64,000 nt of DNA, taken from positions 13,370 to 77,369 of the forward strand of contig CAMPCD010000002.1 in NCBI GenBank assembly GCA_946643435.1, read 5' to 3'. The stretch is from an uncultured bacterium. GTDB lineage: Bacteria > Bacillota_I > Bacilli_A > RF39 > UBA660. The translations under genes and the position numbers were made by a program. Position 1 is the first letter of the stretch; each line of letters starts with the position of its first letter. Below the pieces are notes generated by a model that was not told the DNA's origin, did no database searches, and was given only the letters and a program-made list of their open reading frames with translations. Of this stretch, positions 39,401 through 62,626 are shown piece by piece.

Positions 39401-39442
39401 ATAATAAAAATGAGGAACATATATTGTTTGGAGGATGATAGT

Positions 39443-40969
39443 ATGTTAAAAGATGGTAAAATATTAATAGGTAAAAATGATAACTATGAGGCTAATTTAT
39501 TATTAAGTAAGGCTAATAGACATGGTTTAATTACAGGTGCTACAGGAACTGGAAAGACTATATCTTTAAAAGTATTAGCTGAAAGTTTTTCATCAGCTGG
39601 AGTACCAGTTTTCATGGTTGATGTTAAAGGTGATTTAGCAGGTACTGCTTTTATTGGTGAAGATAATGAAAATGTAAGAACAAGAGTAGAGAAGTTAAAA
39701 CTAGATACATTCAAGTATGATAAATATCCATGTGTATTCTATGATATATATGGTAAATTAGGACATCCACTTAGAACAACAGTAGGTGAGATGGGACATA
39801 GATTATTATCTAAAGTATTAGGATTATCAGAAGTTCAAGATTCAGTATTAACTATTGTATATAAAATAGCTAGTGATGAAGGGAAAGAATTAGATACTCT
39901 AGAGGACTTACAATCTATGTTAGTTTATGTAGCTAATAAAAGAACTGAATTATCACAAGTATATGGTAATATAGCTTCTCAAACATTAACTACAATTCAA
40001 AGAAATGTATTAGAGTTAATAGAAGATTTAAAAGATGGTAACAGTGATAATGTAATGTTTGGATATCCTCCTTTTAATGTTCAAGATTTAAGAGGATTAG
40101 ATGTAGATACAGGATATGGAAGAATAAACATATTAGATGCTCAAGAATTATTTAAACATTCTGATTCATATGCAGCTACTATTTTAACTTTATTAGATAA
40201 AGTATATGATAGTATGCCTGAAGTAGGAGATGTAGATAAACCTAAATTAGTATTATTCTTTGATGAAGCACATCTATTATTCAGTGATATGTCTAAAGCT
40301 ATGTTAGAGCATGTAGTTAAAATAGTTAAATTAATAAGATCAAAAGGTGTAGGTGTATATTTTATATCTCAAAGTCCTGCCGATATACCTGATGAAGTAT
40401 TATCTCAATTAGGTAATAAGATTCAACATGCATTAAGAGTATATACTCCATCTGAAGAAAAGGCTATTAAAGTAGCTGCTGATTCATTTAGAGTTAATCC
40501 TAAATTTGATACTATGAAAGCTATACAAAATTTAGGAACAGGTGAAGCTTTAATTTCTTTAATAGATGAAAATGGTGAACCTACTGTAGTAGAACAAGTA
40601 ACTATCTTACCACCTCAATCAAGAATGGGAACTATTATTGATATGGAAAGACAAGCAATCATTAATAATTCTCCAATTGTAGGTAAGTATGAAAAAGTAG
40701 AAGATAGAGTAAGTGCTAAAGAGAATAATGAAGAAGTATTTAATAAGATTGAACAAGAAAAACAAGAAAAAGAACAAGCTAAGTTAGATGAAAAAAATGC
40801 TAAAGAAGAAGCTAAAAGATTAAAACAAGAAGAAGCAGAAAGAGCTAGAGAAGCAAGAGAAGCTGAAAGAAAGAAAAAACAATCTTTAGGATATAAGATT
40901 GGAAGGAAAGCTGAAAATAAAATAATAGATAAAACATTAAATAAAATATTAAAAGGATTCTTTAAATAA
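39443..40969 (+). CDS. HerA-like (DUF853/YjgR-type) P-loop ATPase
   Basis: RHGLITGATGTGKT Walker A and KLVLFFDEAHLLF Walker B. K/E-rich C-terminal tail. GGAGGA RBS before ATG 39443. Confidence 0.7.
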   Translation: MLKDGKILIGKNDNYEANLLLSKANRHGLITGATGTGKTISLKVLAESFSSAGVPVFMVDVKGDLAGTAFIGEDNENVRTRVEKLKLDTFKYDKYPCVFYDIYGKLGHPLRTTVGEMGHRLLSKVLGLSEVQDSVLTIVYKIASDEGKELDTLEDLQSMLVYVANKRTELSQVYGNIASQTLTTIQRNVLELIEDLKDGNSDNVMFGYPPFNVQDLRGLDVDTGYGRINILDAQELFKHSDSYAATILTLLDKVYDSMPEVGDVDKPKLVLFFDEAHLLFSDMSKAMLEHVVKIVKLIRSKGVGVYFISQSPADIPDEVLSQLGNKIQHALRVYTPSEEKAIKVAADSFRVNPKFDTMKAIQNLGTGEALISLIDENGEPTVVEQVTILPPQSRMGTIIDMERQAIINNSPIVGKYEKVEDRVSAKENNEEVFNKIEQEKQEKEQAKLDEKNAKEEAKRLKQEEAERAREAREAERKKKQSLGYKIGRKAENKIIDKTLNKILKGFFK

Positions 40970-52862: not shown

Positions 52863-53278
52863 ACTTAGTATGGTAGACAACTAAGTGTGTGATTTATAAT
52901 AATTATTGATTTATCCAAACAAATCTTAATTATTAAAAAAATCATATAAAAATAATAATATGTATTTTGTATAATAATAAAATAATTAGGATTGTGATGA
53001 TTAAATTCGTCTGCCTAATTATAAAAACAAATTACATGACTTACTTAGTTGTCGGAATATTATTTATTTGATTAGTTATGTTGAACATACTATATTGAAT
53101 TTTTAATATTTTCTCAATTCCTGTGATGTATTGTTATACCTCATCTAGTACTAAGTATATAGCTATAGGAGAAAGAAAACTCGTTTATGGATGAGCTTTT
53201 ATATCTAGCAATCTGACAATTGCTTGGTATAGAGGATCTAAACTTGAAGATAGGAAGTTGTCAGCTTCCTATTTTTTA
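52863..53278 (+). ncRNA. candidate ~415-nt non-coding transcript or leader (unclassified)
   Basis: Bounded by the promoter at 52828-52856 and the terminator at 53250-53278. Contains four copies of ACTTAGT/ACTAAGT, an 11-nt long-range complement (52876-52886 vs 53043-53053) and loop-loop complementarity (53213-53219 vs 53258-53264). No convincing ORF. Confidence 0.3.
53250..53278 (+). terminator. intrinsic terminator
   Basis: Hairpin ataggaag/cttcctat with loop ttgtcag, followed by T6. Confidence 0.7.
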
Positions 53279-53309: not shown

Positions 53310-53339
53310 TTGATTATTATCTCTTTAATATGGTATACT
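53310..53339 (+). promoter_or_regulatory. promoter TTGATT-18-TATACT with TG extension (surface-protein operon)
   Basis: TTGATT 53310-53315 and TGgTATACT 53331-53339, ~25 nt upstream of GGGGAG and ATG 53364. Confidence 0.45.
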
Positions 53340-53363: not shown

Positions 53364-54119
53364 ATGAAGAAAAAAATTATAAGAATGATGATAATTATTC
53401 TTATGATAGTATGCATTCCTATTGTACATGCTGAATCTACTTGTACGTATAAAGATAAAGCTGAGGCAAAAAAAATAGCTCAAAATGTTACTGCAGCGTA
53501 TGAGATTAAACAAAGAGAAGATGGAACATATTACATAAATATAATTATCTACAATCTAACTGATGATTTGTATGTATCTTATAACTGGAGCACTGGTAAA
53601 GGTAAATACGCAACATCTTCAAAAAACACTATTACAGTTTTTAATTTTGATACTTCTATGCAAGATGGAAAATATACAGGAATATATACAATAGAAGATA
53701 ATGATATAAATATAATAAAAAAATATGTGATAAGTGTTAAAAGTACAAAAATAGGATGTGCAGATACATTAAAAACAATAACATTAACAAAACCAAGATG
53801 GAATCCGATTTCTCAAATAGATGAATGCAAATATTATGATGCTAAAGATAATATGTATTGTAAGGAATGGACATCTCAAGACTTTAAATTAACTCTTGAA
53901 GGTGCTGCTATACAATTAAGAAAACAAAGAGAATTAAATAGAGAAATTGCTCCAACTGAATGTTATTCATGTGAAAAAGATGAACAATATAATACATGGA
54001 TGGAAAGATTTGAAAAAATTAGAAAATATGCAATTATTGGATTATCAATTGGTATAGTTGTTGATCTAGTAGTAATAGTTGTTTTAATAATAAAAATTAA
54101 GGAGGACAGTATAGTATGA
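53364..54119 (+). CDS. secreted, C-terminally anchored 4-Cys protein (paralogue 1)
   Basis: Signal peptide MMIIILMIVCIPIVHAES. Four Cys positions are shared with the next gene. C-terminal TM. The track start at 53283 lies upstream of the promoter. Confidence 0.6.
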   Translation: MKKKIIRMMIIILMIVCIPIVHAESTCTYKDKAEAKKIAQNVTAAYEIKQREDGTYYINIIIYNLTDDLYVSYNWSTGKGKYATSSKNTITVFNFDTSMQDGKYTGIYTIEDNDINIIKKYVISVKSTKIGCADTLKTITLTKPRWNPISQIDECKYYDAKDNMYCKEWTSQDFKLTLEGAAIQLRKQRELNREIAPTECYSCEKDEQYNTWMERFEKIRKYAIIGLSIGIVVDLVVIVVLIIKIKEDSIV

Positions 54120-54979
54120 GTCGTAGTTATCAACCTTATAGATTTAAAAGAGAGTATATACCAGTTATCATTGCAATATTAATACTAGGATTATTAATAG
54201 CTGCATTAGTATATACAATTACATATAAACCAAAAACTAAAGATCAATATTATGAAGAAAACTCAGTTGCAACTGATGAAGTAATTGTTGATACAAGTAA
54301 TACTGTATGTACTGAAGAAGTAAATAATAAAATTAAAGAAGATGCAAAAAATGTAAATATTAAATATGAAGTTGTATCAGATTATTACTTTGGTAAAGCA
54401 GATGAACTTGACACTGATTTAAATGGTGATGGTGAATTTGGTGAAATAGACATATACGGTCCTGCATTAAGAATATCCATTGAAGGAATAACTGATAATG
54501 TATATGTTAAACTTGAAAATGACTTAGACTATCAAGTTCAAACATATAAAGCAAGTGATGCACAAGATGGAATTGTTAAGTTCGATCAAACAGAAAATGC
54601 TTATATAAGAACATATGATGTTAAAGTTTATTCAGCAAATACTGAATGTGGAGAAGTACTATTTAGAGAGTTTACTTTTAAACTTCCTAGATTAAATGAA
54701 CTAAGACAAACAAACGCTTGTAGTGAATACCCTGATATGAAAATGTGTTCTTCATTTGTTTGGGAGCAAGATGAACCTACATTAAGAAATGCTATAACTA
54801 AAGAATACAAAGAATTCAAACGTGAAGCAGAAGAAAAGAAACAACAAGAAGAACAAGAACAAAACAAGAGTATATTTGAAAAGATTAAAGATAATAAGGT
54901 GTTAATGATTGCTATAGTAGCATGTGTTGTTGTAGTAATTGGTGTAGTTGTGATAGTTATAAAAAGGAGAAGAAAGTAA
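54116..54979 (+). CDS. membrane protein with N- and C-terminal TM helices, paralogue 2 of the upstream gene
   Basis: ATGA start/stop overlap. Shared blocks: CT..V..KI...A.NV...YE, I.I.(N/G)(L/I)TD(D/N).YV, (G/E)C..(T/V)L...T..KPR.N...Q...C..Y....MC. C-terminal TM plus KRRRK. Confidence 0.6.
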   Translation: MSRSYQPYRFKREYIPVIIAILILGLLIAALVYTITYKPKTKDQYYEENSVATDEVIVDTSNTVCTEEVNNKIKEDAKNVNIKYEVVSDYYFGKADELDTDLNGDGEFGEIDIYGPALRISIEGITDNVYVKLENDLDYQVQTYKASDAQDGIVKFDQTENAYIRTYDVKVYSANTECGEVLFREFTFKLPRLNELRQTNACSEYPDMKMCSSFVWEQDEPTLRNAITKEYKEFKREAEEKKQQEEQEQNKSIFEKIKDNKVLMIAIVACVVVVIGVVVIVIKRRRK

Positions 54980-54980
54980 T

Positions 54981-57900
54981 ATGAAGACTAAGAGATTATT
55001 ATTTATACTTATAACTATTATAATGTTAACTGCAACTACATCTGTTAATGCCGCATATGAGAAAACTGGAACTATAACAGGACATGTTAATTTTGGTTCA
55101 GCAATTCCTATGGACTTAGGATGTTCAAGTTGTACACATGCTTATAAGTACTTTGATTATCAATTTATTCCTGATGGTGGTGGAGGACCTTATCCTGCAT
55201 ACTGTATTTCTCCAGATTATACTGGATCTCATGGTTTAAATTTATCATGTGAATTAGCTAATCCTAAGAATTATGCTGAAGCATACTATTTATTAAGTAA
55301 GTATGGTGCTACTGCAGACAAAGCTGCGTTAGCTTTAGCTATACGTGTAGCAGGTTTCCAAAGTAATGGTATTGAGGATAATGACAACTTTGCAATGGAA
55401 GCAACTCAACAATATCGTATAGCATTCGCTGCATCAACTATGTATTATATGGGTATTGCTCAAGATCCAAAATTTGATGGATATGTTTTAAGAAGTGGAA
55501 TTGCTCCTAGCGCATTTGCTATGTGGAAAGATGCTACATTAGTTGCAAATGATCAAAGAGCTAAAGGAACATTAAAAGATAATATAACTACAACTTATAC
55601 TGCGAGTACTATTACTGAAGAGGCTGGTGCTCAAGGAAAGTTAGTTAAGTTAACTGTAAAAGAAGTTATTGAAAGTGAAAATGGTTCTGGGGCAAAAATA
55701 GTTAAGTATAGAATCGATAAAACTGTTCCTGGTGAACTAGGAAGACTAAAAGTAATAAGTGATGGTAATGTAATTGCATCAGTTAAAGAATGGAATGGTA
55801 CAACTGGAGAACTTGTTGTAACACCTACAAGTGAAACAAATTGTGAAGGAAGTATCATAATTACTGCTGCTGATGTTCAACAGGTAAGTGGCGAGCCTGG
55901 TAAAACAATTTATAAATGCTCAGGTAATGGAAATGAAACACAACAATTCTTAATATTGGGACCTGATTTAATCGGTGATGAATTCCCAGTAAAATTCGAC
56001 TGTGATAGCTGTGAGGAAGCTGGTGAAGGTGATGCTGGAGATGACTGTACAACATTTAGATTACCTGGTGATCCAGTATATGACTCTAATAACTGCTGTG
56101 AAGATGGTGGATATAAAAACTTCCGTCAAGAAATATTAAATAACATCTTCTGTTATAACAAAACTTTAGATGTTCAAAATTATAAATTAAAATGTGGTGC
56201 TGAAGTTTATTTAGACACAGTAATAGATGAAGAATTCTGCTCTTTATATTGTGTTCAATCAATGCATTATAAACTTCCTGGAGTAACTTATGCTAAGGCT
56301 GGTAGATATTTCAAACTAGCTAGTCAAGGCTCTGGTGAAGGTGGAGAAATAACAGGACCAATATTAACAATGTACTATAGATGTAGAACATTAATTAATT
56401 ATGAAAAATGGTATGGTAGATACTTTGGTGAAGTTGAAAAACAAGTAGAAGGTTATAATAAACATCAACAAAATAAAGCATATCAAATGGTATGGGAAGA
56501 TTTAAAAGTTGAAGGCGAAAAAGAAAGTAGAAAGATCAGTTTGAATTCGGATACAGGAATAACTGAAGTTGCATGTGAATGGGAATATAGCTGGTCTTGG
56601 GATTGTACACAAACAACATACGTTAATGGTTCGCCAGTAGTTACTGACGCCGATCAAGATGGTACTAGTAACAGTGGTACTGAGAAAAAATCTATTACCG
56701 ATGTTAAATCTCGTAGTTATAAATTTGATTATGTTCAAGCAAGTACAAATAATAAGTATAAATATAATGTTATAAAAATAGATGCCGATGGAGGACCTGA
56801 ACACACTGCATTTGATGGTGAAAAGAAATATACATATATTAATGTAGTATATGATCATGTTGAAAGTCCAAGTGATGGAACTAGATACTTAAATAAATCA
56901 GATGTTGAAAAATGGGAAGGAAACTTTGATAAAGCTCATACAGATGCTAAGAAAGATGCACAAGATAAATATGATGCAGCTAAGGCTGCTGGTGGTAAAG
57001 CTACAAATCCAAGTAACAGTAGTACTGGATTATCTTGTAGTCAATCTGTTACAGACAAAGCTCCTTCATGTACATCAAAACCTAGTCCTGGTGTAAAAGT
57101 TGATCCAGACAAAAAGATTAGTGATTATAGAACTGCTAAAGAAAATGGTGGCGATGTAGTTGAAAACGCTGCAAAAGAAGCTAAGAGCTTGGAAGAAAGA
57201 TTAACTAAATGTGATACAGAAGCAGAAAAGATAGTTAAAATAACTGAAACTCCTGAAATGCAATTCTCTTATACACAAGCATATATTAATGATTATGGTA
57301 AAGTTCAAACTGATTTAAGAACGATTCCATTTACAAGACATTGTTCTGAGGGTACTCAACACGGTGGTGAAAGTTCATGGAACCCTGATGGAGATTCTGG
57401 TGGTGCTAGTGGACAACATGGTATTGATGCAGATAAATATTCAATAAAAGAATATAAAACTGGAATTGATACAGTTACAGATTTTGCAACTGCTGGTGGA
57501 CATTGGGTTGATACATTATTCCCATTCTCAACATCATTTGGTAAAAAAGCTATAGTTAAAGATCATAAGGATTCAGAATATGAATCACATAAGAACTTTA
57601 CTACTGATGATGTTGCATGGAAAGAATGTTATTGGACAGATTCAGAAAACAATAAATTATATACATTAGTTCCTGCTGGTGAAGTTGGATATGTAACAAC
57701 AGAAAACTATACAATTCATGATAGAACATACTTTGTTACAAAGACACATATGGAAGGTGAATTCCAAACATATTTCACAATGAGTAATGTTGGTAAAGAT
57801 TACTTATGGGATGAATTCTTACTTAAGACAGATACATGTAAGGGTGGTCCTGAAGATGGAGCAACTTCTACATGTAAGATTATAATTGATAATGAGATCC

Positions 57901-58430
57901 CTAAAACAGGTAAGTGTAATGAAGTTGTTACTACAGATACAGATATTTGTCATTCTTGTTATGGTGATAAACAATGTGGAAACGTTACTATTCCATTTGA
58001 ATATAAAGAAATAGATAATCTTAATCCATTTGTATATGATGAATTATATAAGAATTCAGTAGCTCATAACTGGTTAGTAGATCCTGTAGGTAAAGCAGAG
58101 TTAAGTAAAATTGTTGAAACAGCTAAGAAGGATAAAACTTATGCTCCTGAAAATTTAACATATTCATTTACTTTAACTCCTAAAGATTTAAAAGCTATTA
58201 GATCTTATAATAAAAAGAGATTATATCAAGGTGGATATACTGATTTCACACTTGAATGCCAAGACGGAGTAAAAACTGAAAATGGTGTAGCAGAAAGATG
58301 TTATTCTAAATTCTTAACTGCTATATCTGGTGGTAGTGGCTTTGAAGGATTAGAGATAAATACATTTAATGGTAATATTAATTCTGTTAGAGAAAGATTA
58401 AGATGGAATTATAATAACATAGAAAGGTGA
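54981..58430 (+). CDS. large secreted Cys-rich protein (1149 aa, hypothetical)
   Basis: Signal peptide LTATTSVNAAYE. Clustered Cys motifs (DCDSCEE, NNCCEDGG, CSLYCV, CHSCYGDKQCG). No anchor motif and no recognised domain. Confidence 0.7.
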   Translation: MKTKRLLFILITIIMLTATTSVNAAYEKTGTITGHVNFGSAIPMDLGCSSCTHAYKYFDYQFIPDGGGGPYPAYCISPDYTGSHGLNLSCELANPKNYAEAYYLLSKYGATADKAALALAIRVAGFQSNGIEDNDNFAMEATQQYRIAFAASTMYYMGIAQDPKFDGYVLRSGIAPSAFAMWKDATLVANDQRAKGTLKDNITTTYTASTITEEAGAQGKLVKLTVKEVIESENGSGAKIVKYRIDKTVPGELGRLKVISDGNVIASVKEWNGTTGELVVTPTSETNCEGSIIITAADVQQVSGEPGKTIYKCSGNGNETQQFLILGPDLIGDEFPVKFDCDSCEEAGEGDAGDDCTTFRLPGDPVYDSNNCCEDGGYKNFRQEILNNIFCYNKTLDVQNYKLKCGAEVYLDTVIDEEFCSLYCVQSMHYKLPGVTYAKAGRYFKLASQGSGEGGEITGPILTMYYRCRTLINYEKWYGRYFGEVEKQVEGYNKHQQNKAYQMVWEDLKVEGEKESRKISLNSDTGITEVACEWEYSWSWDCTQTTYVNGSPVVTDADQDGTSNSGTEKKSITDVKSRSYKFDYVQASTNNKYKYNVIKIDADGGPEHTAFDGEKKYTYINVVYDHVESPSDGTRYLNKSDVEKWEGNFDKAHTDAKKDAQDKYDAAKAAGGKATNPSNSSTGLSCSQSVTDKAPSCTSKPSPGVKVDPDKKISDYRTAKENGGDVVENAAKEAKSLEERLTKCDTEAEKIVKITETPEMQFSYTQAYINDYGKVQTDLRTIPFTRHCSEGTQHGGESSWNPDGDSGGASGQHGIDADKYSIKEYKTGIDTVTDFATAGGHWVDTLFPFSTSFGKKAIVKDHKDSEYESHKNFTTDDVAWKECYWTDSENNKLYTLVPAGEVGYVTTENYTIHDRTYFVTKTHMEGEFQTYFTMSNVGKDYLWDEFLLKTDTCKGGPEDGATSTCKIIIDNEIPKTGKCNEVVTTDTDICHSCYGDKQCGNVTIPFEYKEIDNLNPFVYDELYKNSVAHNWLVDPVGKAELSKIVETAKKDKTYAPENLTYSFTLTPKDLKAIRSYNKKRLYQGGYTDFTLECQDGVKTENGVAERCYSKFLTAISGGSGFEGLEINTFNGNINSVRERLRWNYNNIER

Positions 58431-58438
58431 TGTAGCAA

Positions 58439-58948
58439 ATGAAGGAAAGCATTTGGGGATACTGGATTGTAGTATTAGGTATTTCAATATTTGCAATAAT
58501 GATATTATTGCAAAACTATTCAATAACAGATGAACAATCATTCTTTCTTGTTAAAGAATCTCTATCAGCTGCCATGAAGGAATCGGTTGACTATGGTTAT
58601 ATTGCGGATTCTCCAAAAAATCCAATTACTCCAGACAACTATAAAGATACTAAAAATTATGGTAGATTAAAGATTAATAGAGAAAAAGTTATTGAAAACT
58701 TTATTAGAAGATTTGCTGAATCTGTAGATATTAATAAAACATATAATATTAATTTCTATAATGTTTCTGAAGTTCCTCCATGTATTTCTGTTGAGGTAAC
58801 TGCAAATACTACTCCTTCTTCATTTGGTCAATGGCAAACAGCTGCTGATACTGAAGTAGTAACATCAAGTAGATTTACAGGAATACTATTTACAACAGAA
58901 GACTATAACTATTGTTGGGATTTCAACAATGATGGCAAATGTGATTAA
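58439..58948 (+). CDS. small N-terminally anchored protein (hypothetical)
   Basis: N-terminal TM WGYWIVVLGISIFAIMILL. Last gene of the operon, followed by a terminator. Confidence 0.55.
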   Translation: MKESIWGYWIVVLGISIFAIMILLQNYSITDEQSFFLVKESLSAAMKESVDYGYIADSPKNPITPDNYKDTKNYGRLKINREKVIENFIRRFAESVDINKTYNINFYNVSEVPPCISVEVTANTTPSSFGQWQTAADTEVVTSSRFTGILFTTEDYNYCWDFNNDGKCD

Positions 58949-58952
58949 TAAA

Positions 58953-58980
58953 AAAGATGCTTTATAAAAGCATCTTTTTA
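58953..58980 (+). terminator. intrinsic terminator
   Basis: Hairpin aaagatgcttt/aaagcatcttt followed by a T run. Confidence 0.7.
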
Positions 58981-60381: not shown

Positions 60382-62022
60382 ATGAAGAGATTTAAATTTT
60401 TAACAATCATGATGATCTTAGCTGCATTCTTATTTGGTGGTATTGTAACAGTTAATGCTGATACAATTTTACCAAAGACATTCGTTACTCACAAAGATGA
60501 TAGAGTAAAATTAAACTACATCAAATATGTAGACTCTGCTGGTAATAACGATGATTATGCATTAATCGCTAAGAAAGCAACAGATGGTACATATGTATAT
60601 TGTATAGACTTACATAAGAAATATGATGGAAATCTTACATATACTAAAACAGGTACTATGGATGAAGGTATAGAATATATCTTAAAGCATAAATCAAATA
60701 CTGGTGATGCTAATAAAGACTTCTATATCACACAAATGGCCGTTTATTTCTATCAAGACTGGTTAAATAATAATGACAACAATTTACAAGAACCATTCAA
60801 GAAATTAATCGTTGCCGCAGCTACAATTGAAAATGCTGAAGTAGATGCTACTACTAAAGAAGTATCTAAAGCAATCTATAAGTTATGGGCAGACGCTGTT
60901 CATTATAGACAATCATATGTAGCAAAAAATGGTTATATTAATATAACTACAAACTCAGTAAAATTCACACAAAAAGATGGTTACTTTGAATCTTCTAAGA
61001 TTTATGTAGATTCAGGGAACTTAATTGGTGATATGAGTAAAACAATGATCAATGCTACTCCTAATACAAGAATATTAAGAGATAAAGCAGATGGTGGTTA
61101 TGTAGTAAGAGTTCCTGTTACTGACATACCTGAAGGTAAAAAAGTTACTTTCACATTAAAATGGGCAGGACAATATAATGATGAATCAGCATGGTATTAT
61201 TATACTAATGATGCACATCAAAGATTACTATATGACAAGATAGAAACTGAAACAAAAGATGTTCAAGCAACTATCACATTAACAGTTAAAAATTATATTG
61301 AAAATTATCAAGTTAAAATCAGTAAAACTGATGTAACTCAACAATATGAAATACCAGGTGCTACTTTAGTAGTTAAAGATGCAAATGGTAAAGAAATTGA
61401 AACTTGGGTTTCAACAACAGAAACTCATAAATTAGTATTAGCTGAAGGTGAATATAGTTTAACTGAAACTATTGCACCAAAAGGCTACAGATTAAGCACA
61501 ACAACTATTTACTTCAAACTTGATGAAAACGGCAGAATATATGCTAAAGTAAATGGTAACTATGTACAAGTTGATAAGATTAATATGATTAATGAATTAA
61601 AAGATGTAACTTCAATCGCTAAGAAAGATGCATCAAATGATAAGTATTTACCTGGAGCTACTTTAGTTGTTAAAGATAACAAAGGTAATGTAGTTCAAGA
61701 ATTCGTATCAAATGATTCAGTATATCAATTAGTATTACAACCTGGTGAATATACATTAGAAGAAAAAGCTGCACCTAGTGGTTATATCCTAAGTAAAGAT
61801 AAAGTTTCATTTAGAGTATTAGTAAGTGGAGCTTTACAAGTTAAGAATAGTAATGGGGTTTATGAAGATAGTGTTATGGTAGTATTCTATAATACTCCTG
61901 AAAAAGAAGAAGAAGTCATTGTTCCAAGTACTGGAGCTTCTGGATTATTCATGACAATTGCAGGTTTAACACTATTAATTTCTGGTGTGGTTTATGTTAC
62001 TAAAACTACAAAAGAATGCTAA
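60382..62022 (+). CDS. cell-wall-anchored adhesin: thioester (TQxA-like) domain + two CnaB/SpaA-type domains + VPSTG sorting signal
   Basis: Signal peptide. YVYCIDLHKK (Cys74) and FYITQMAVYFY (Gln118) fit the thioester-domain Cys and TQxA(I/V)W pattern. Two repeats carry E-box-like YSLTETIAPKGY and YTLEEKAAPSGY. C-terminal VPSTGAS, a hydrophobic helix, and TKTTKEC. Confidence 0.75.
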   Translation: MKRFKFLTIMMILAAFLFGGIVTVNADTILPKTFVTHKDDRVKLNYIKYVDSAGNNDDYALIAKKATDGTYVYCIDLHKKYDGNLTYTKTGTMDEGIEYILKHKSNTGDANKDFYITQMAVYFYQDWLNNNDNNLQEPFKKLIVAAATIENAEVDATTKEVSKAIYKLWADAVHYRQSYVAKNGYINITTNSVKFTQKDGYFESSKIYVDSGNLIGDMSKTMINATPNTRILRDKADGGYVVRVPVTDIPEGKKVTFTLKWAGQYNDESAWYYYTNDAHQRLLYDKIETETKDVQATITLTVKNYIENYQVKISKTDVTQQYEIPGATLVVKDANGKEIETWVSTTETHKLVLAEGEYSLTETIAPKGYRLSTTTIYFKLDENGRIYAKVNGNYVQVDKINMINELKDVTSIAKKDASNDKYLPGATLVVKDNKGNVVQEFVSNDSVYQLVLQPGEYTLEEKAAPSGYILSKDKVSFRVLVSGALQVKNSNGVYEDSVMVVFYNTPEKEEEVIVPSTGASGLFMTIAGLTLLISGVVYVTKTTKEC

Positions 62023-62626
62023 GATAACCCTTAGTATTCTTTTCATCTTTATAGGTATTGCCTTATTAACATTCAATTATTTTGGATCAGTTAAGTCAAA
62101 CCTATTTAATGAAAAAAATATAGAGTTATTAAGTCAACAAATTGAATTACCTGAAGAGGTAAAAACAATAGATGAAGAAGAACCCGACATTACTAGTCCA
62201 GTGCAACCATCTACTACTGGTTATATAGGTTATTTATCAGTACCTGATGTTAATATTAAAAGAGGTTTTGTAGACTTTGATAATCCAGATAATACATTAA
62301 GTAAAAACATAATGCTTATTAAAGGATCATCAATGCCTGATGTAAAAAACGGAAACTTAATATTAGCTGGTCACAATGGTAGATCATGGTATTCATTCTT
62401 CAATGACTTATATAAACTTAAAGATGGTGCTCATGCATATGTTACCTATAATGGTAGAGTGTATGACTATACATTAAAAAATAGATATGATGTACCTAAG
62501 ATTGGTACAATAACAGTCCAAAGAAATGGAGACGTTAATACATTAACATTGATTACATGTCATAGAACAGATAATCATAAACAAGTTGTATTTATATTTG
62601 AATTATCAAATGTAACTATAGCTTAA
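61994..62626 (+). CDS. sortase-family transpeptidase (class not assigned)
   Basis: N-terminal TM, GYLSVPDVNIKRGF, LILAGHNG (His), TLTLITCH (Cys). Overlaps the adhesin 3' end. Start is 61985 (GTG) or 61994 (ATG). Confidence 0.75.
   Translation: MLLKLQKNAKITLSILFIFIGIALLTFNYFGSVKSNLFNEKNIELLSQQIELPEEVKTIDEEEPDITSPVQPSTTGYIGYLSVPDVNIKRGFVDFDNPDNTLSKNIMLIKGSSMPDVKNGNLILAGHNGRSWYSFFNDLYKLKDGAHAYVTYNGRVYDYTLKNRYDVPKIGTITVQRNGDVNTLTLITCHRTDNHKQVVFIFELSNVTIA

Follow-up and report, generated by a model that had tools for sequence, protein, structure and literature searches.

A four-gene operon of uncultured gut Bacilli, encoding a large cysteine-rich secreted protein and a DUF5411 protein, is genetically associated with a diverged Tad-like machine

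We analysed a window of 64,000 nucleotides (G+C content ~26%) from the genome of an uncultured bacterium of the family UBA660, order RF39 (assembly GCA_946643435.1, 1.13 Mb and 80% complete; contig CAMPCD010000002.1, positions 13,370 to 77,369 of the forward strand). Reading of its open reading frames (ORFs) identified four co-directional genes, here termed A, B, C and D (53364-58948), between two terminator-like hairpins. They encode two related membrane proteins (A and B), a large cysteine-rich secreted protein (C) and a small membrane-anchored protein of the Pfam family DUF5411 (D). Across this bacterial family the corresponding genes lie beside, or occur together with, those of a Tad-like machine, and their genetic association with it is well supported. 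We consider that the operon is probably the cargo-and-adaptor module of this chromosomal, very diverged Tad-like (type IV filament) machine, a reading for which we infer the physical mechanism from sequence data.

The organisation of the operon agrees with an initial annotation of the window, which had placed four genes between a promoter and a strong terminator: the reading frames, a promoter-like site and the hairpins were all found (Table 1), and a scan of the region for terminator-like sites returned 8, with 1.9 expected. The ATGA overlap of A and B described there is seen in the sequence, and is preceded by AAGGAGG. The two following gaps are each one nucleotide shorter than had been given, at 1 nt instead of 2 between B and C (TAA t ATG), and 8 nt instead of 9 between C and D. 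There is a Shine-Dalgarno sequence 5' of each of the four starts, including a GGGGAG ribosome-binding site 5 nt 5' of the ATG of gene A. These junctions point to translational coupling along the predicted A-B-C-D transcript.

Hydropathy analysis gave different topologies for A and B. Protein A has a cleavable-looking signal peptide (..VHA|EST), an ectodomain of ~190 residues, a single C-terminal transmembrane segment and a short tail, and is a type I membrane protein. In protein B an uncleaved N-terminal transmembrane segment (residues 17-35) replaces the signal peptide, and a C-terminal transmembrane segment (264-282) is followed by an RRRK tail. The C-terminal anchors initially assigned to both proteins are therefore present; the label "tail-anchored" does not fit, given the signal peptide of A and the N-terminal segment of B. 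The proposal that the two are paralogues with four conserved cysteines was borne out. Pairwise similarity is weak (BLASTP, E 0.003, 23% identity), and profiles of the two proteins from the window's genus (8 aligned A and 10 aligned B sequences) matched each other with 99.6% probability (hhalign, E 9e-24). In this alignment C27, C132, C155 and C166 of A pair with C65, C178, C202 and C211 of B, and all four are invariant in the 8 A and 10 B sequences. Neither protein matched Pfam, NCBIfam, PHROG or the sequences of the PDB. The unnamed family to which they belong is large, with 1236 A-type cluster representatives at E<=1e-3. Among the loci examined the B-type topology is restricted to the window's genus, family members found outside it are all A-type, and the A-type is the ancestral form.

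Protein C has a Sec signal peptide (..VNA|AYE) and 31 cysteines, and sequence reading and hydropathy found neither an LPXTG motif nor a hydrophobic C-terminus, the protein ending in ...RERLRWNYNNIER. Signal peptide, abundant cysteines and the want of a wall anchor are all as first described, and we rejected C as a sortase-anchored surface protein, there being no LPXTG-type sorting signal. The conservation of C peaks at residues 1051-1100, 851-1000 and 401-500 and is lowest at 101-200 and 501-700, which gives a layout of a variable N-terminal third, a conserved cysteine-rich core at ~400-500 and a conserved C-terminal domain at ~850-1120. A word-index homologue search with C returned 6 matches, and the genus-level profile by itself matches only weakly the giant cysteine-rich proteins encoded beside DUF5411 genes in other genera. 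Comparison of an alignment of 41 such giants with the genus-level C alignment established that they are homologous (hhalign, 100% probability, E 4e-52, residues 416-1120). Shared landmarks are C420 and C424 (..YC...C..), followed by P433 and a GRYF motif around F444, and a C-terminal domain with the pattern ..NW..YSFTLTP..IR.YNK..Y.DF.L.C..C.S.FL.

As with A and B, no match to C was found in Pfam, NCBIfam, PHROG or PDB sequences; weak, non-significant matches in the family searches of the three proteins were to TraN, Big_13 and ATP-synt_F6. An AlphaFold2 model of C from 15 sequences (pLDDT 64) has immunoglobulin-like sandwiches at ~200-340 and long helices and hairpins at ~455-800; a Foldseek search of the model against the PDB returned nothing at E<=1e-3 and immunoglobulin-like fragments only. 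Of 15 genus members, 12 conserve a YxAYC(I/V)xP(D/G) motif in the N-terminal domain; this motif recalls a thioester cysteine motif. The conserved partner glutamine of such a bond could not be placed, none of the 15 genus members and 41 giants matched the thioester domain (TED) family PF08341, and C has no similarity to a TED adhesin encoded next door. We therefore rejected C as a thioester-domain (TED/TIE) adhesin. Elsewhere in the genome, contig C1 (38260-39045, minus strand) encodes a thioredoxin-like protein that is exported and membrane-anchored and has a DsbA-type CPHC motif, recognised only from this motif and from a weak match in tblastn; it is a predicted candidate oxidase for the cysteines of the system, and its presence makes extracytoplasmic disulfide formation plausible.

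Protein D was correctly described as small and N-terminally anchored. It is not unmatched, as had been thought, and belongs to DUF5411 (PF17424; E 2.5e-37, 128.3 bits against a gathering threshold of 30, profile positions 1-119 of 134). D is thus the only one of the four products with a described family, and that family is itself a DUF. It has one N-terminal transmembrane segment, and its first residues, MKESIWGYW, lead into a hydrophobic stretch; a start of the form M-[KR]-[ED]-[AS]-x-(G/W) with a hydrophobic stretch after it is shared with the Flp-sized and pseudopilin-like proteins discussed below. An AlphaFold2 model from 14 sequences (pLDDT 68.6) has a helix of 46 residues (3-48), a second helix (81-95) and a three-stranded sheet, an order of secondary structure that in this model would be compatible with a pilin or a PilO-like protein. 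Sequence-profile searches of the PDB with D and with the pseudopilin-like proteins gave nothing meaningful, and tblastn of D against plasmids gave no match.

The initial annotation had also considered that the four genes might not be syntenic in any other genome, which is clearly not the case. At least 572 D-encoding stretches were confirmed when species-representative genomes were scanned; 79 loci among them, containing 84 D genes, were annotated with profiles built here and form the basis of the following counts. A C-family or giant cysteine-rich gene lies immediately 5' of D in 73 of 82 cases, in 64 of which it is itself preceded by an A/B-family gene. Immediately 3' of D we identified a CpaB gene in 59 of 80 informative cases, then a TadA/VirB11-type ATPase and two platform-like membrane proteins. 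The order in other genera runs from an A-type gene through the giant C homologue and D to one or two CpaB/RcpC genes, a T2SSE ATPase, two polytopic membrane proteins, one to three Flp-sized genes, one or two pseudopilin-sized genes (starting MRESxG.. or MRDAFGG..) and a protein of ~330 residues in the position of TadZ. Genes resembling VirB6, VirB4 and VirD4 often come after this Tad-like block. The ancestral state is one cluster of ~27 kb, which in the window's genus is split into at least four loci. Within this genus the module is conserved, often in duplicate, and occurs in the orders A B C D B C D (genome G005), B C D B C D A (G004) and C D A B A B C (D) (G006 and G010), and in G011 its context is the same as in the window.

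DUF5411 was detected in 105 of 121 genomes of the family (~87%) and is rare elsewhere in the class. The D-encoding records are labelled as uncultured Bacilli, Tenericutes, Mollicutes, Erysipelotrichales and "Mycoplasma sp. CAG:956", and their sources are the rumen and the gut of rabbit, mouse and human. D is gained and lost along with the ATPase: both are found in 104 of the 121 genomes, D alone in 1, the ATPase alone in 5 and neither in 11 (Fisher p = 4e-11).

We identified the parts of the machine in the window's own genome by tblastn and ORF reading, on three further contigs. Contig C37 carries two CpaB genes, a TadA-like ATPase and TadB-like and TadC-like genes, and ends right after them; contig C3 carries a pseudopilin-like gene, an flp gene, a second pseudopilin-like gene, a gene of 336 codons in the TadZ position and one for a membrane protein of 119 residues. 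Contig C12 has a VirB6-like fragment, a VirB3-sized protein, a VirB4-like ATPase (P-loop_TraG, 8e-15), M23 and M15 peptidoglycan hydrolases and a VirD4 coupling protein (T4SS-DNA_transf, 1.3e-51). The TadA-like ATPase (C37:3274-4896, 540 residues) matches PF00437 (T2SSE) at 5.4e-26 and is 73% identical to that of locus L038 from another genus (T2SSE, 2.8e-29); its best NCBIfam matches are to VirB11, TadA-family and FlaI models, all below the equivalog cut-offs. We noted that it has a C-terminal extension of ~170 residues rich in proline, glutamine and valine, absent from most orthologues (reading frames of 360-400 codons). The CpaB protein of L038 has both SAF (1.6e-7) and RcpC (7.4e-7) domains and can be assigned to CpaB/RcpC; that of the own genome reaches RcpC at 1.6e-6, with 28.4 bits for a cut-off of 28.8. 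Neither platform-like membrane protein has a Pfam match to T2SSF, the TadB/TadC platform domain; only position, size and topology agree with such a role.

Flp-sized genes that encode MKEATGE(L/A)N and a hydrophobic stretch lie 3' of the TadC-like gene in all eight loci checked. They start MKEATGE(L/A)N(M/L)T, with neither the G/XXXXEY motif nor an EY, and have no Flp or TadE match in Pfam. The own-genome candidate for this pilin (C3:40540-40803, plus strand; 87 residues, MKDATGELSMTAVAVVAIAAIG..) has six cysteines within its C-terminal half, an unusual feature in a Flp-type pilin. The ORFs listed for the examined loci and their flanks, on which no peptidase profile was run, showed no prepilin peptidase (TadV). 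The own genome has a PilD-like gene beside PilC on contig C9. We rejected a link of PilC/PilD to the module: in G005 they lie ~2.8 kb upstream with unrelated genes between, in the own genome on another contig, and we regard the proximity as coincidence.

The D-CpaB-ATPase synteny, the co-occurrence of D with the ATPase and the machine parts of the own genome together suggest that the four genes are one module of a larger apparatus with Tad-like and type IV secretion system (T4SS)-like parts. In the model that we favour, C would be exported by Sec without an anchor of its own, would probably be stabilised by disulfides, and would act as a surface-exposed, ligand-binding, adhesin-like cargo. A and B would be its membrane-anchored partners, with disulfide-bonded ectodomains that keep C on the external side of the membrane; a giant gene is normally accompanied by an A-type gene of its own. 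D would be a conserved, N-anchored and possibly pilin-like adaptor that couples the C complex to the motor of CpaB, TadA, TadB-like and TadC-like proteins and to the Flp-sized pilins, so that C may be carried or pushed across the wall by the filament as it grows, and be displayed. In the window's genus the module, separated from the motor (C37), the pilins (C3) and VirB4/VirD4 (C12), would work in trans.

The initial annotation had proposed an unrecognised surface complex, in which tail-anchored paralogues hold a large ectoprotein. The proteins are indeed uncharacterised, exported and cysteine-containing, and the presence of an A-type gene almost always directly before the C-type gene fits a dedicated membrane-bound partner, although not a tail-anchored one. 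That such a complex is self-contained is not supported, in view of the CpaB/ATPase synteny, the co-occurrence of D and ATPase and the own-genome machine parts. A stand-alone version, in which A/B hold C, D is a further membrane subunit and no motor is needed at least in this genus, would explain why the module has its own promoter-like site and terminators, why it sits in the genus apart from the motor, among the housekeeping genes LCP, trxB and ldh, and why an A, A, C, D block stands alone in locus L047 (genome G021). It does not account for the co-occurrence statistics, for the retention of the motor in every genome of the genus checked (G000, G009 and the own genome) or for the contiguous ancestral arrangement; D is moreover much more constrained than its partners, as expected of a protein that docks to a conserved machine. 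We accordingly consider a motor-free complex very unlikely.

The rates of change within duplicated modules are of interest for the proposed role of D as adaptor. A-C pairs duplicate together in loci L070, L100, L101, L088, L109 and L116, and in the window's genus B-C-D units do so in L012, L014 and L016. Within one genome the C copies of such modules are 34-42% identical, and the B copies 27-38%. The D copies of the same genomes are nearly or fully identical in DNA, at 424/426 positions in L012 (9198-9623 and 14143-14568), 491/495 in L014 (4976-5470 and 9784-10278) and 441/441 in L016 (6792-7232 and 14192-14632), and in all three genomes near-identity stops near the limits of the D gene. Set against the long divergence of C and its partner, this argues for gene conversion or very recent copying of D, or may reflect a cassette arrangement. 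Identical D copies beside C and B copies that have diverged strongly make a clear case in which to study concerted and diversifying evolution side by side, and the pattern fits a docking part that stays constant and an exposed part that varies. For comparison, ATPase identity across the family is 65-90%, and that of C falls to ~25-50% within the genus; rapid evolution of this kind is as expected of a surface-exposed, ligand-binding protein.

In 2 of the 15 genus-level C paralogues (L015:10755-14252, minus strand; L016:3290-6781, plus strand) an NlpC/P60 peptidoglycan endopeptidase domain (GLDCSGFVWW; Pfam E 6.8e-8) replaces the N-terminal YC..P domain. This raises the question of whether C is an adhesin at all, or a wall-spanning or wall-remodelling part of the conduit, or else a secreted substrate or effector tethered by A/B, for which the thick wall to be crossed by a machine with no secretin, and the duplication of A-C pairs as cassettes, could also be cited. 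However, structural channel parts are normally conserved, unlike C in its divergence both within the genus and between same-genome copies. C is also variable N-terminally and conserved C-terminally, the reverse of polymorphic toxins, and dedicated M23 and M15 hydrolases are already present in the cluster. A non-adhesin role for C is, in our judgement, improbable.

We additionally considered the T4SS-like genes that accompany the Tad-like block. The module may be the cell-cell contact device of a conjugation-type T4SS, with C a mating or contact adhesin like Tie of the pLS20-family plasmids and a filament that gathers partner bacteria for transfer of DNA or protein through a VirB4/VirB6/VirD4 channel; the architecture would be the same as in the model above, the target (other bacteria) and the purpose being different. 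In genome G137 the TadZ-position gene is directly followed by VirB6-like, VirB3-like, VirB4-like (594 residues), peptidoglycan-hydrolase and VirD4-like genes, the VirB4-like, M23, M15 and VirD4 genes of contig C12 are of the same kind, and a reading of the listed coordinates puts D and VirD4 14-22 kb apart on one contig in ~45 or more genomes, all of which speak for this view. It is countered by the lack of the relaxase domains PF03432 (Relaxase), PF02486 (Rep_trans) and PF03389 (MobA_MobL), the three families tested, in 10 genomes including ones that are 96-100% complete, and by the status of the cluster as a chromosomal core trait of a whole bacterial family rather than a mobile element. The parts are also separable: a chromosomal gene for the VirD4-type coupling protein is found in 118 of the 121 genomes (identities of 47-77% among the top-listed matches), and 10 of the 11 genomes devoid of both D and ATPase still have it. 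The T4SS-like part therefore carries the Tad-like part and the cargo module as a separable add-on.

The closest studied system is the block of genes 34-41 of pLS20-family plasmids, whose gene order speaks both for the cargo-and-adaptor reading and for a conjugative role. The best plasmid matches of the ATPase are "CpaF/VirB11 family" genes of Bacillus plasmids, and in pBatNRS213, a member of the pLS20 family, the order is Tie adhesin, a gene of 65 codons, p36 (126 residues, N-terminal transmembrane segment), VirB11-like ATPase, p38 and p39; 3' of p39 come a DUF4320 protein and several tiny membrane proteins, and later VirD4 and VirB6. Among the 18 proteins of this plasmid searched, our profiles matched p37 at 1e-66, p38 at 4e-8, p39 at 6e-9 and p36 at 8e-7, p38 and p39 being matched by the TadB/TadC-like profiles and p36 by that of D (D against p36 by hhalign: 53% probability, E 1.4e-4); the DUF4320 protein was matched weakly. 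Genes 34-41 of pLS20 thus show the same succession of a large secreted adhesin, a small N-anchored protein, a VirB11/TadA-type ATPase, two membrane proteins and small N-anchored proteins, with VirD4, VirB6 and VirB4 further along as in the family clusters. Genes 36 and 38-41 are given as unknown in this plasmid family, which is stated to have no homologues of the pilus components VirB2 and VirB5 (PMC8557374), and Tie is required for efficient conjugation (PMC8092201). The likeness has limits: pLS20 is a plasmid with a relaxase, unlike the chromosomal core cluster described here, in which no relaxase of the three families tested was found, its block lacks both CpaB and an A-type partner gene, and Tie is defined by a class II thioester domain and has one cysteine, whereas C has 31 and no TED match. 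On balance we regard a conjugative contact module as unlikely, and somewhat less so than the other two alternatives, and retain the Tad-like cargo-and-adaptor reading.

This reading draws on a comparison with Tad/Flp (type IVc) pili, such as Caulobacter Cpa, Aggregatibacter Tad and Bifidobacterium breve Tad. They have in common with our clusters a short TadA/CpaF-class ATPase, a CpaB/RcpC-domain protein, two tandem platform-sized membrane proteins, and very small pilin-sized beside larger pseudopilin-sized genes, and a role in adhesion, as for Tad/Flp pili, is plausible here. Unlike them, the clusters have a pilin leader M-K-E-A-T-G-E in place of G/XXXXEY and no T2SSF, TadE or Flp match in Pfam, and the module of A-type, giant cysteine-rich and DUF5411 genes has no counterpart in classical Tad loci. 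In type IVa systems PilY1/PilC, a protein of ~1100 residues with a Sec signal peptide and no pilin N-terminus, is encoded adjoining small pilin-like genes and is presented by the filament. C may be likened to it in function only, as an analogy, and no sequence or fold similarity was found.

Our literature search on DUF5411 found a single study, and nothing on the system of this lineage. Miller et al. (2022; PMC9523054) predicted by machine learning a secretion-related DUF5411 operon in Roseburia, Ruminococcus and Eubacterium, in which DUF5411 is accompanied by a CpaF-type ATPase, a platform protein and a large surface/invasion-like protein. That operon belongs to Clostridia, a different phylum-level lineage, and its large partner is internalin-B-like, not cysteine-rich; A-type genes and T4SS-like neighbours are not reported there, and it is a computational prediction only.

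Several observations weigh against the cargo-and-adaptor reading. The platform-like, pseudopilin-like and TadZ-position proteins have no Pfam match, no adhesin domain is recognisable in C (none of the 15 + 41 members matches Pfam TED, and Foldseek returned immunoglobulin-like fragments only), and the fold of D has no match in the PDB (Foldseek best E 0.5). Profile comparison of D with the pseudopilin-like proteins of the loci aligns the first 25 residues only, at 8% probability (hhalign), so that the term "pilin-like" for D refers to its N-terminal motif and its order of secondary structure alone. The putative contacts of A/B, C and D with each other and with the filament, and with them the mode of display and the adhesin function, are deduced from genetics. 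Finally, 5 genomes have the ATPase with no detectable D, and the own promoter and terminator of the module, on a contig other than that of the motor, mean that it could function independently in the window's genus.

The features of the operon are listed in Table 1. Its upstream flank contains cysS, a zinc peptidase, a PrsA-like peptidyl-prolyl isomerase, an LCP protein and thioredoxin reductase (trxB), and its downstream flank L-lactate dehydrogenase (ldh), a thioester/SpaA adhesin and a sortase. The adhesin is a protein of 546 residues (window 60382-62626, plus strand) with one Pfam TED and two SpaA domains, next to the sortase-like gene; the two make up a classical surface-adhesin system distinct from the operon. 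Just 5' of the first hairpin, within the long non-coding stretch that precedes the operon, a sub-threshold match to the Rfam PGK RNA motif was noted (window 53132-53227, plus strand; 32.7 bits against a gathering threshold of 50.8, E 0.059), and no regulatory RNA upstream of the operon exceeded the Rfam threshold. The best AAA_10 (VirB4/HerA-like P-loop) match of the genome, at 32.7 bits, is an ORF of 519 codons in the window (39410-40969, plus strand), which lies beside amidoligase-like genes and appears unrelated to the A-D operon.

Table 1. Features of the operon and its boundaries, in window coordinates
Feature	Position	Strand	Description
Terminator-like hairpin	53246..53276	+	14-bp stem, then T-run; closes the upstream non-coding unit and marks the 5' operon boundary
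Promoter-like site, extended -10	53310..53339	+	TTGATT, 18 nt, TG-n-TATACT; consensus scan and direct reading; consensus match only
Gene A	53364..54119	+	251 aa
Gene B	54116..54979	+	287 aa, paralogue of A
Gene C	54981..58430	+	1149 aa
Gene D	58439..58948	+	169 aa, DUF5411
Intrinsic terminator-like hairpin	58951..58979	+	13-bp stem, then T-run; operon end

Taken further, these data would allow the tentative proposal, which we hold to be possible and on the doubtful side, that gut Bacilli and pLS20-type plasmids carry a separate, unnamed branch of type IV filaments, which may be called DUF5411-type. Its subunits, all starting M-[KR]-[ED]-[AS]-x-G/W, may be used without classical prepilin processing, and the task of the machine would be the loading and display of an anchorless giant, with the A-type/giant/DUF5411 module as the loading unit. 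In duplicated modules gene conversion would keep the D copies identical, and C would diverge along with its A/B partner. The outcome would be a cassette system that varies the displayed adhesin on one constant machine.

Three of the four proteins of the operon (A, B and C) come from unnamed families, and the conjugative plasmids of the pLS20 family, said to be without a pilus, carry the same core uninterpreted. Each system would be informed by work on the other, and laboratory Bacillus subtilis with pLS20 is a tractable surrogate. The Tad-like/DUF5411 system is common to a large family of small-genome uncultured gut bacteria, and is likely the main device by which this family attaches to host or other cells.

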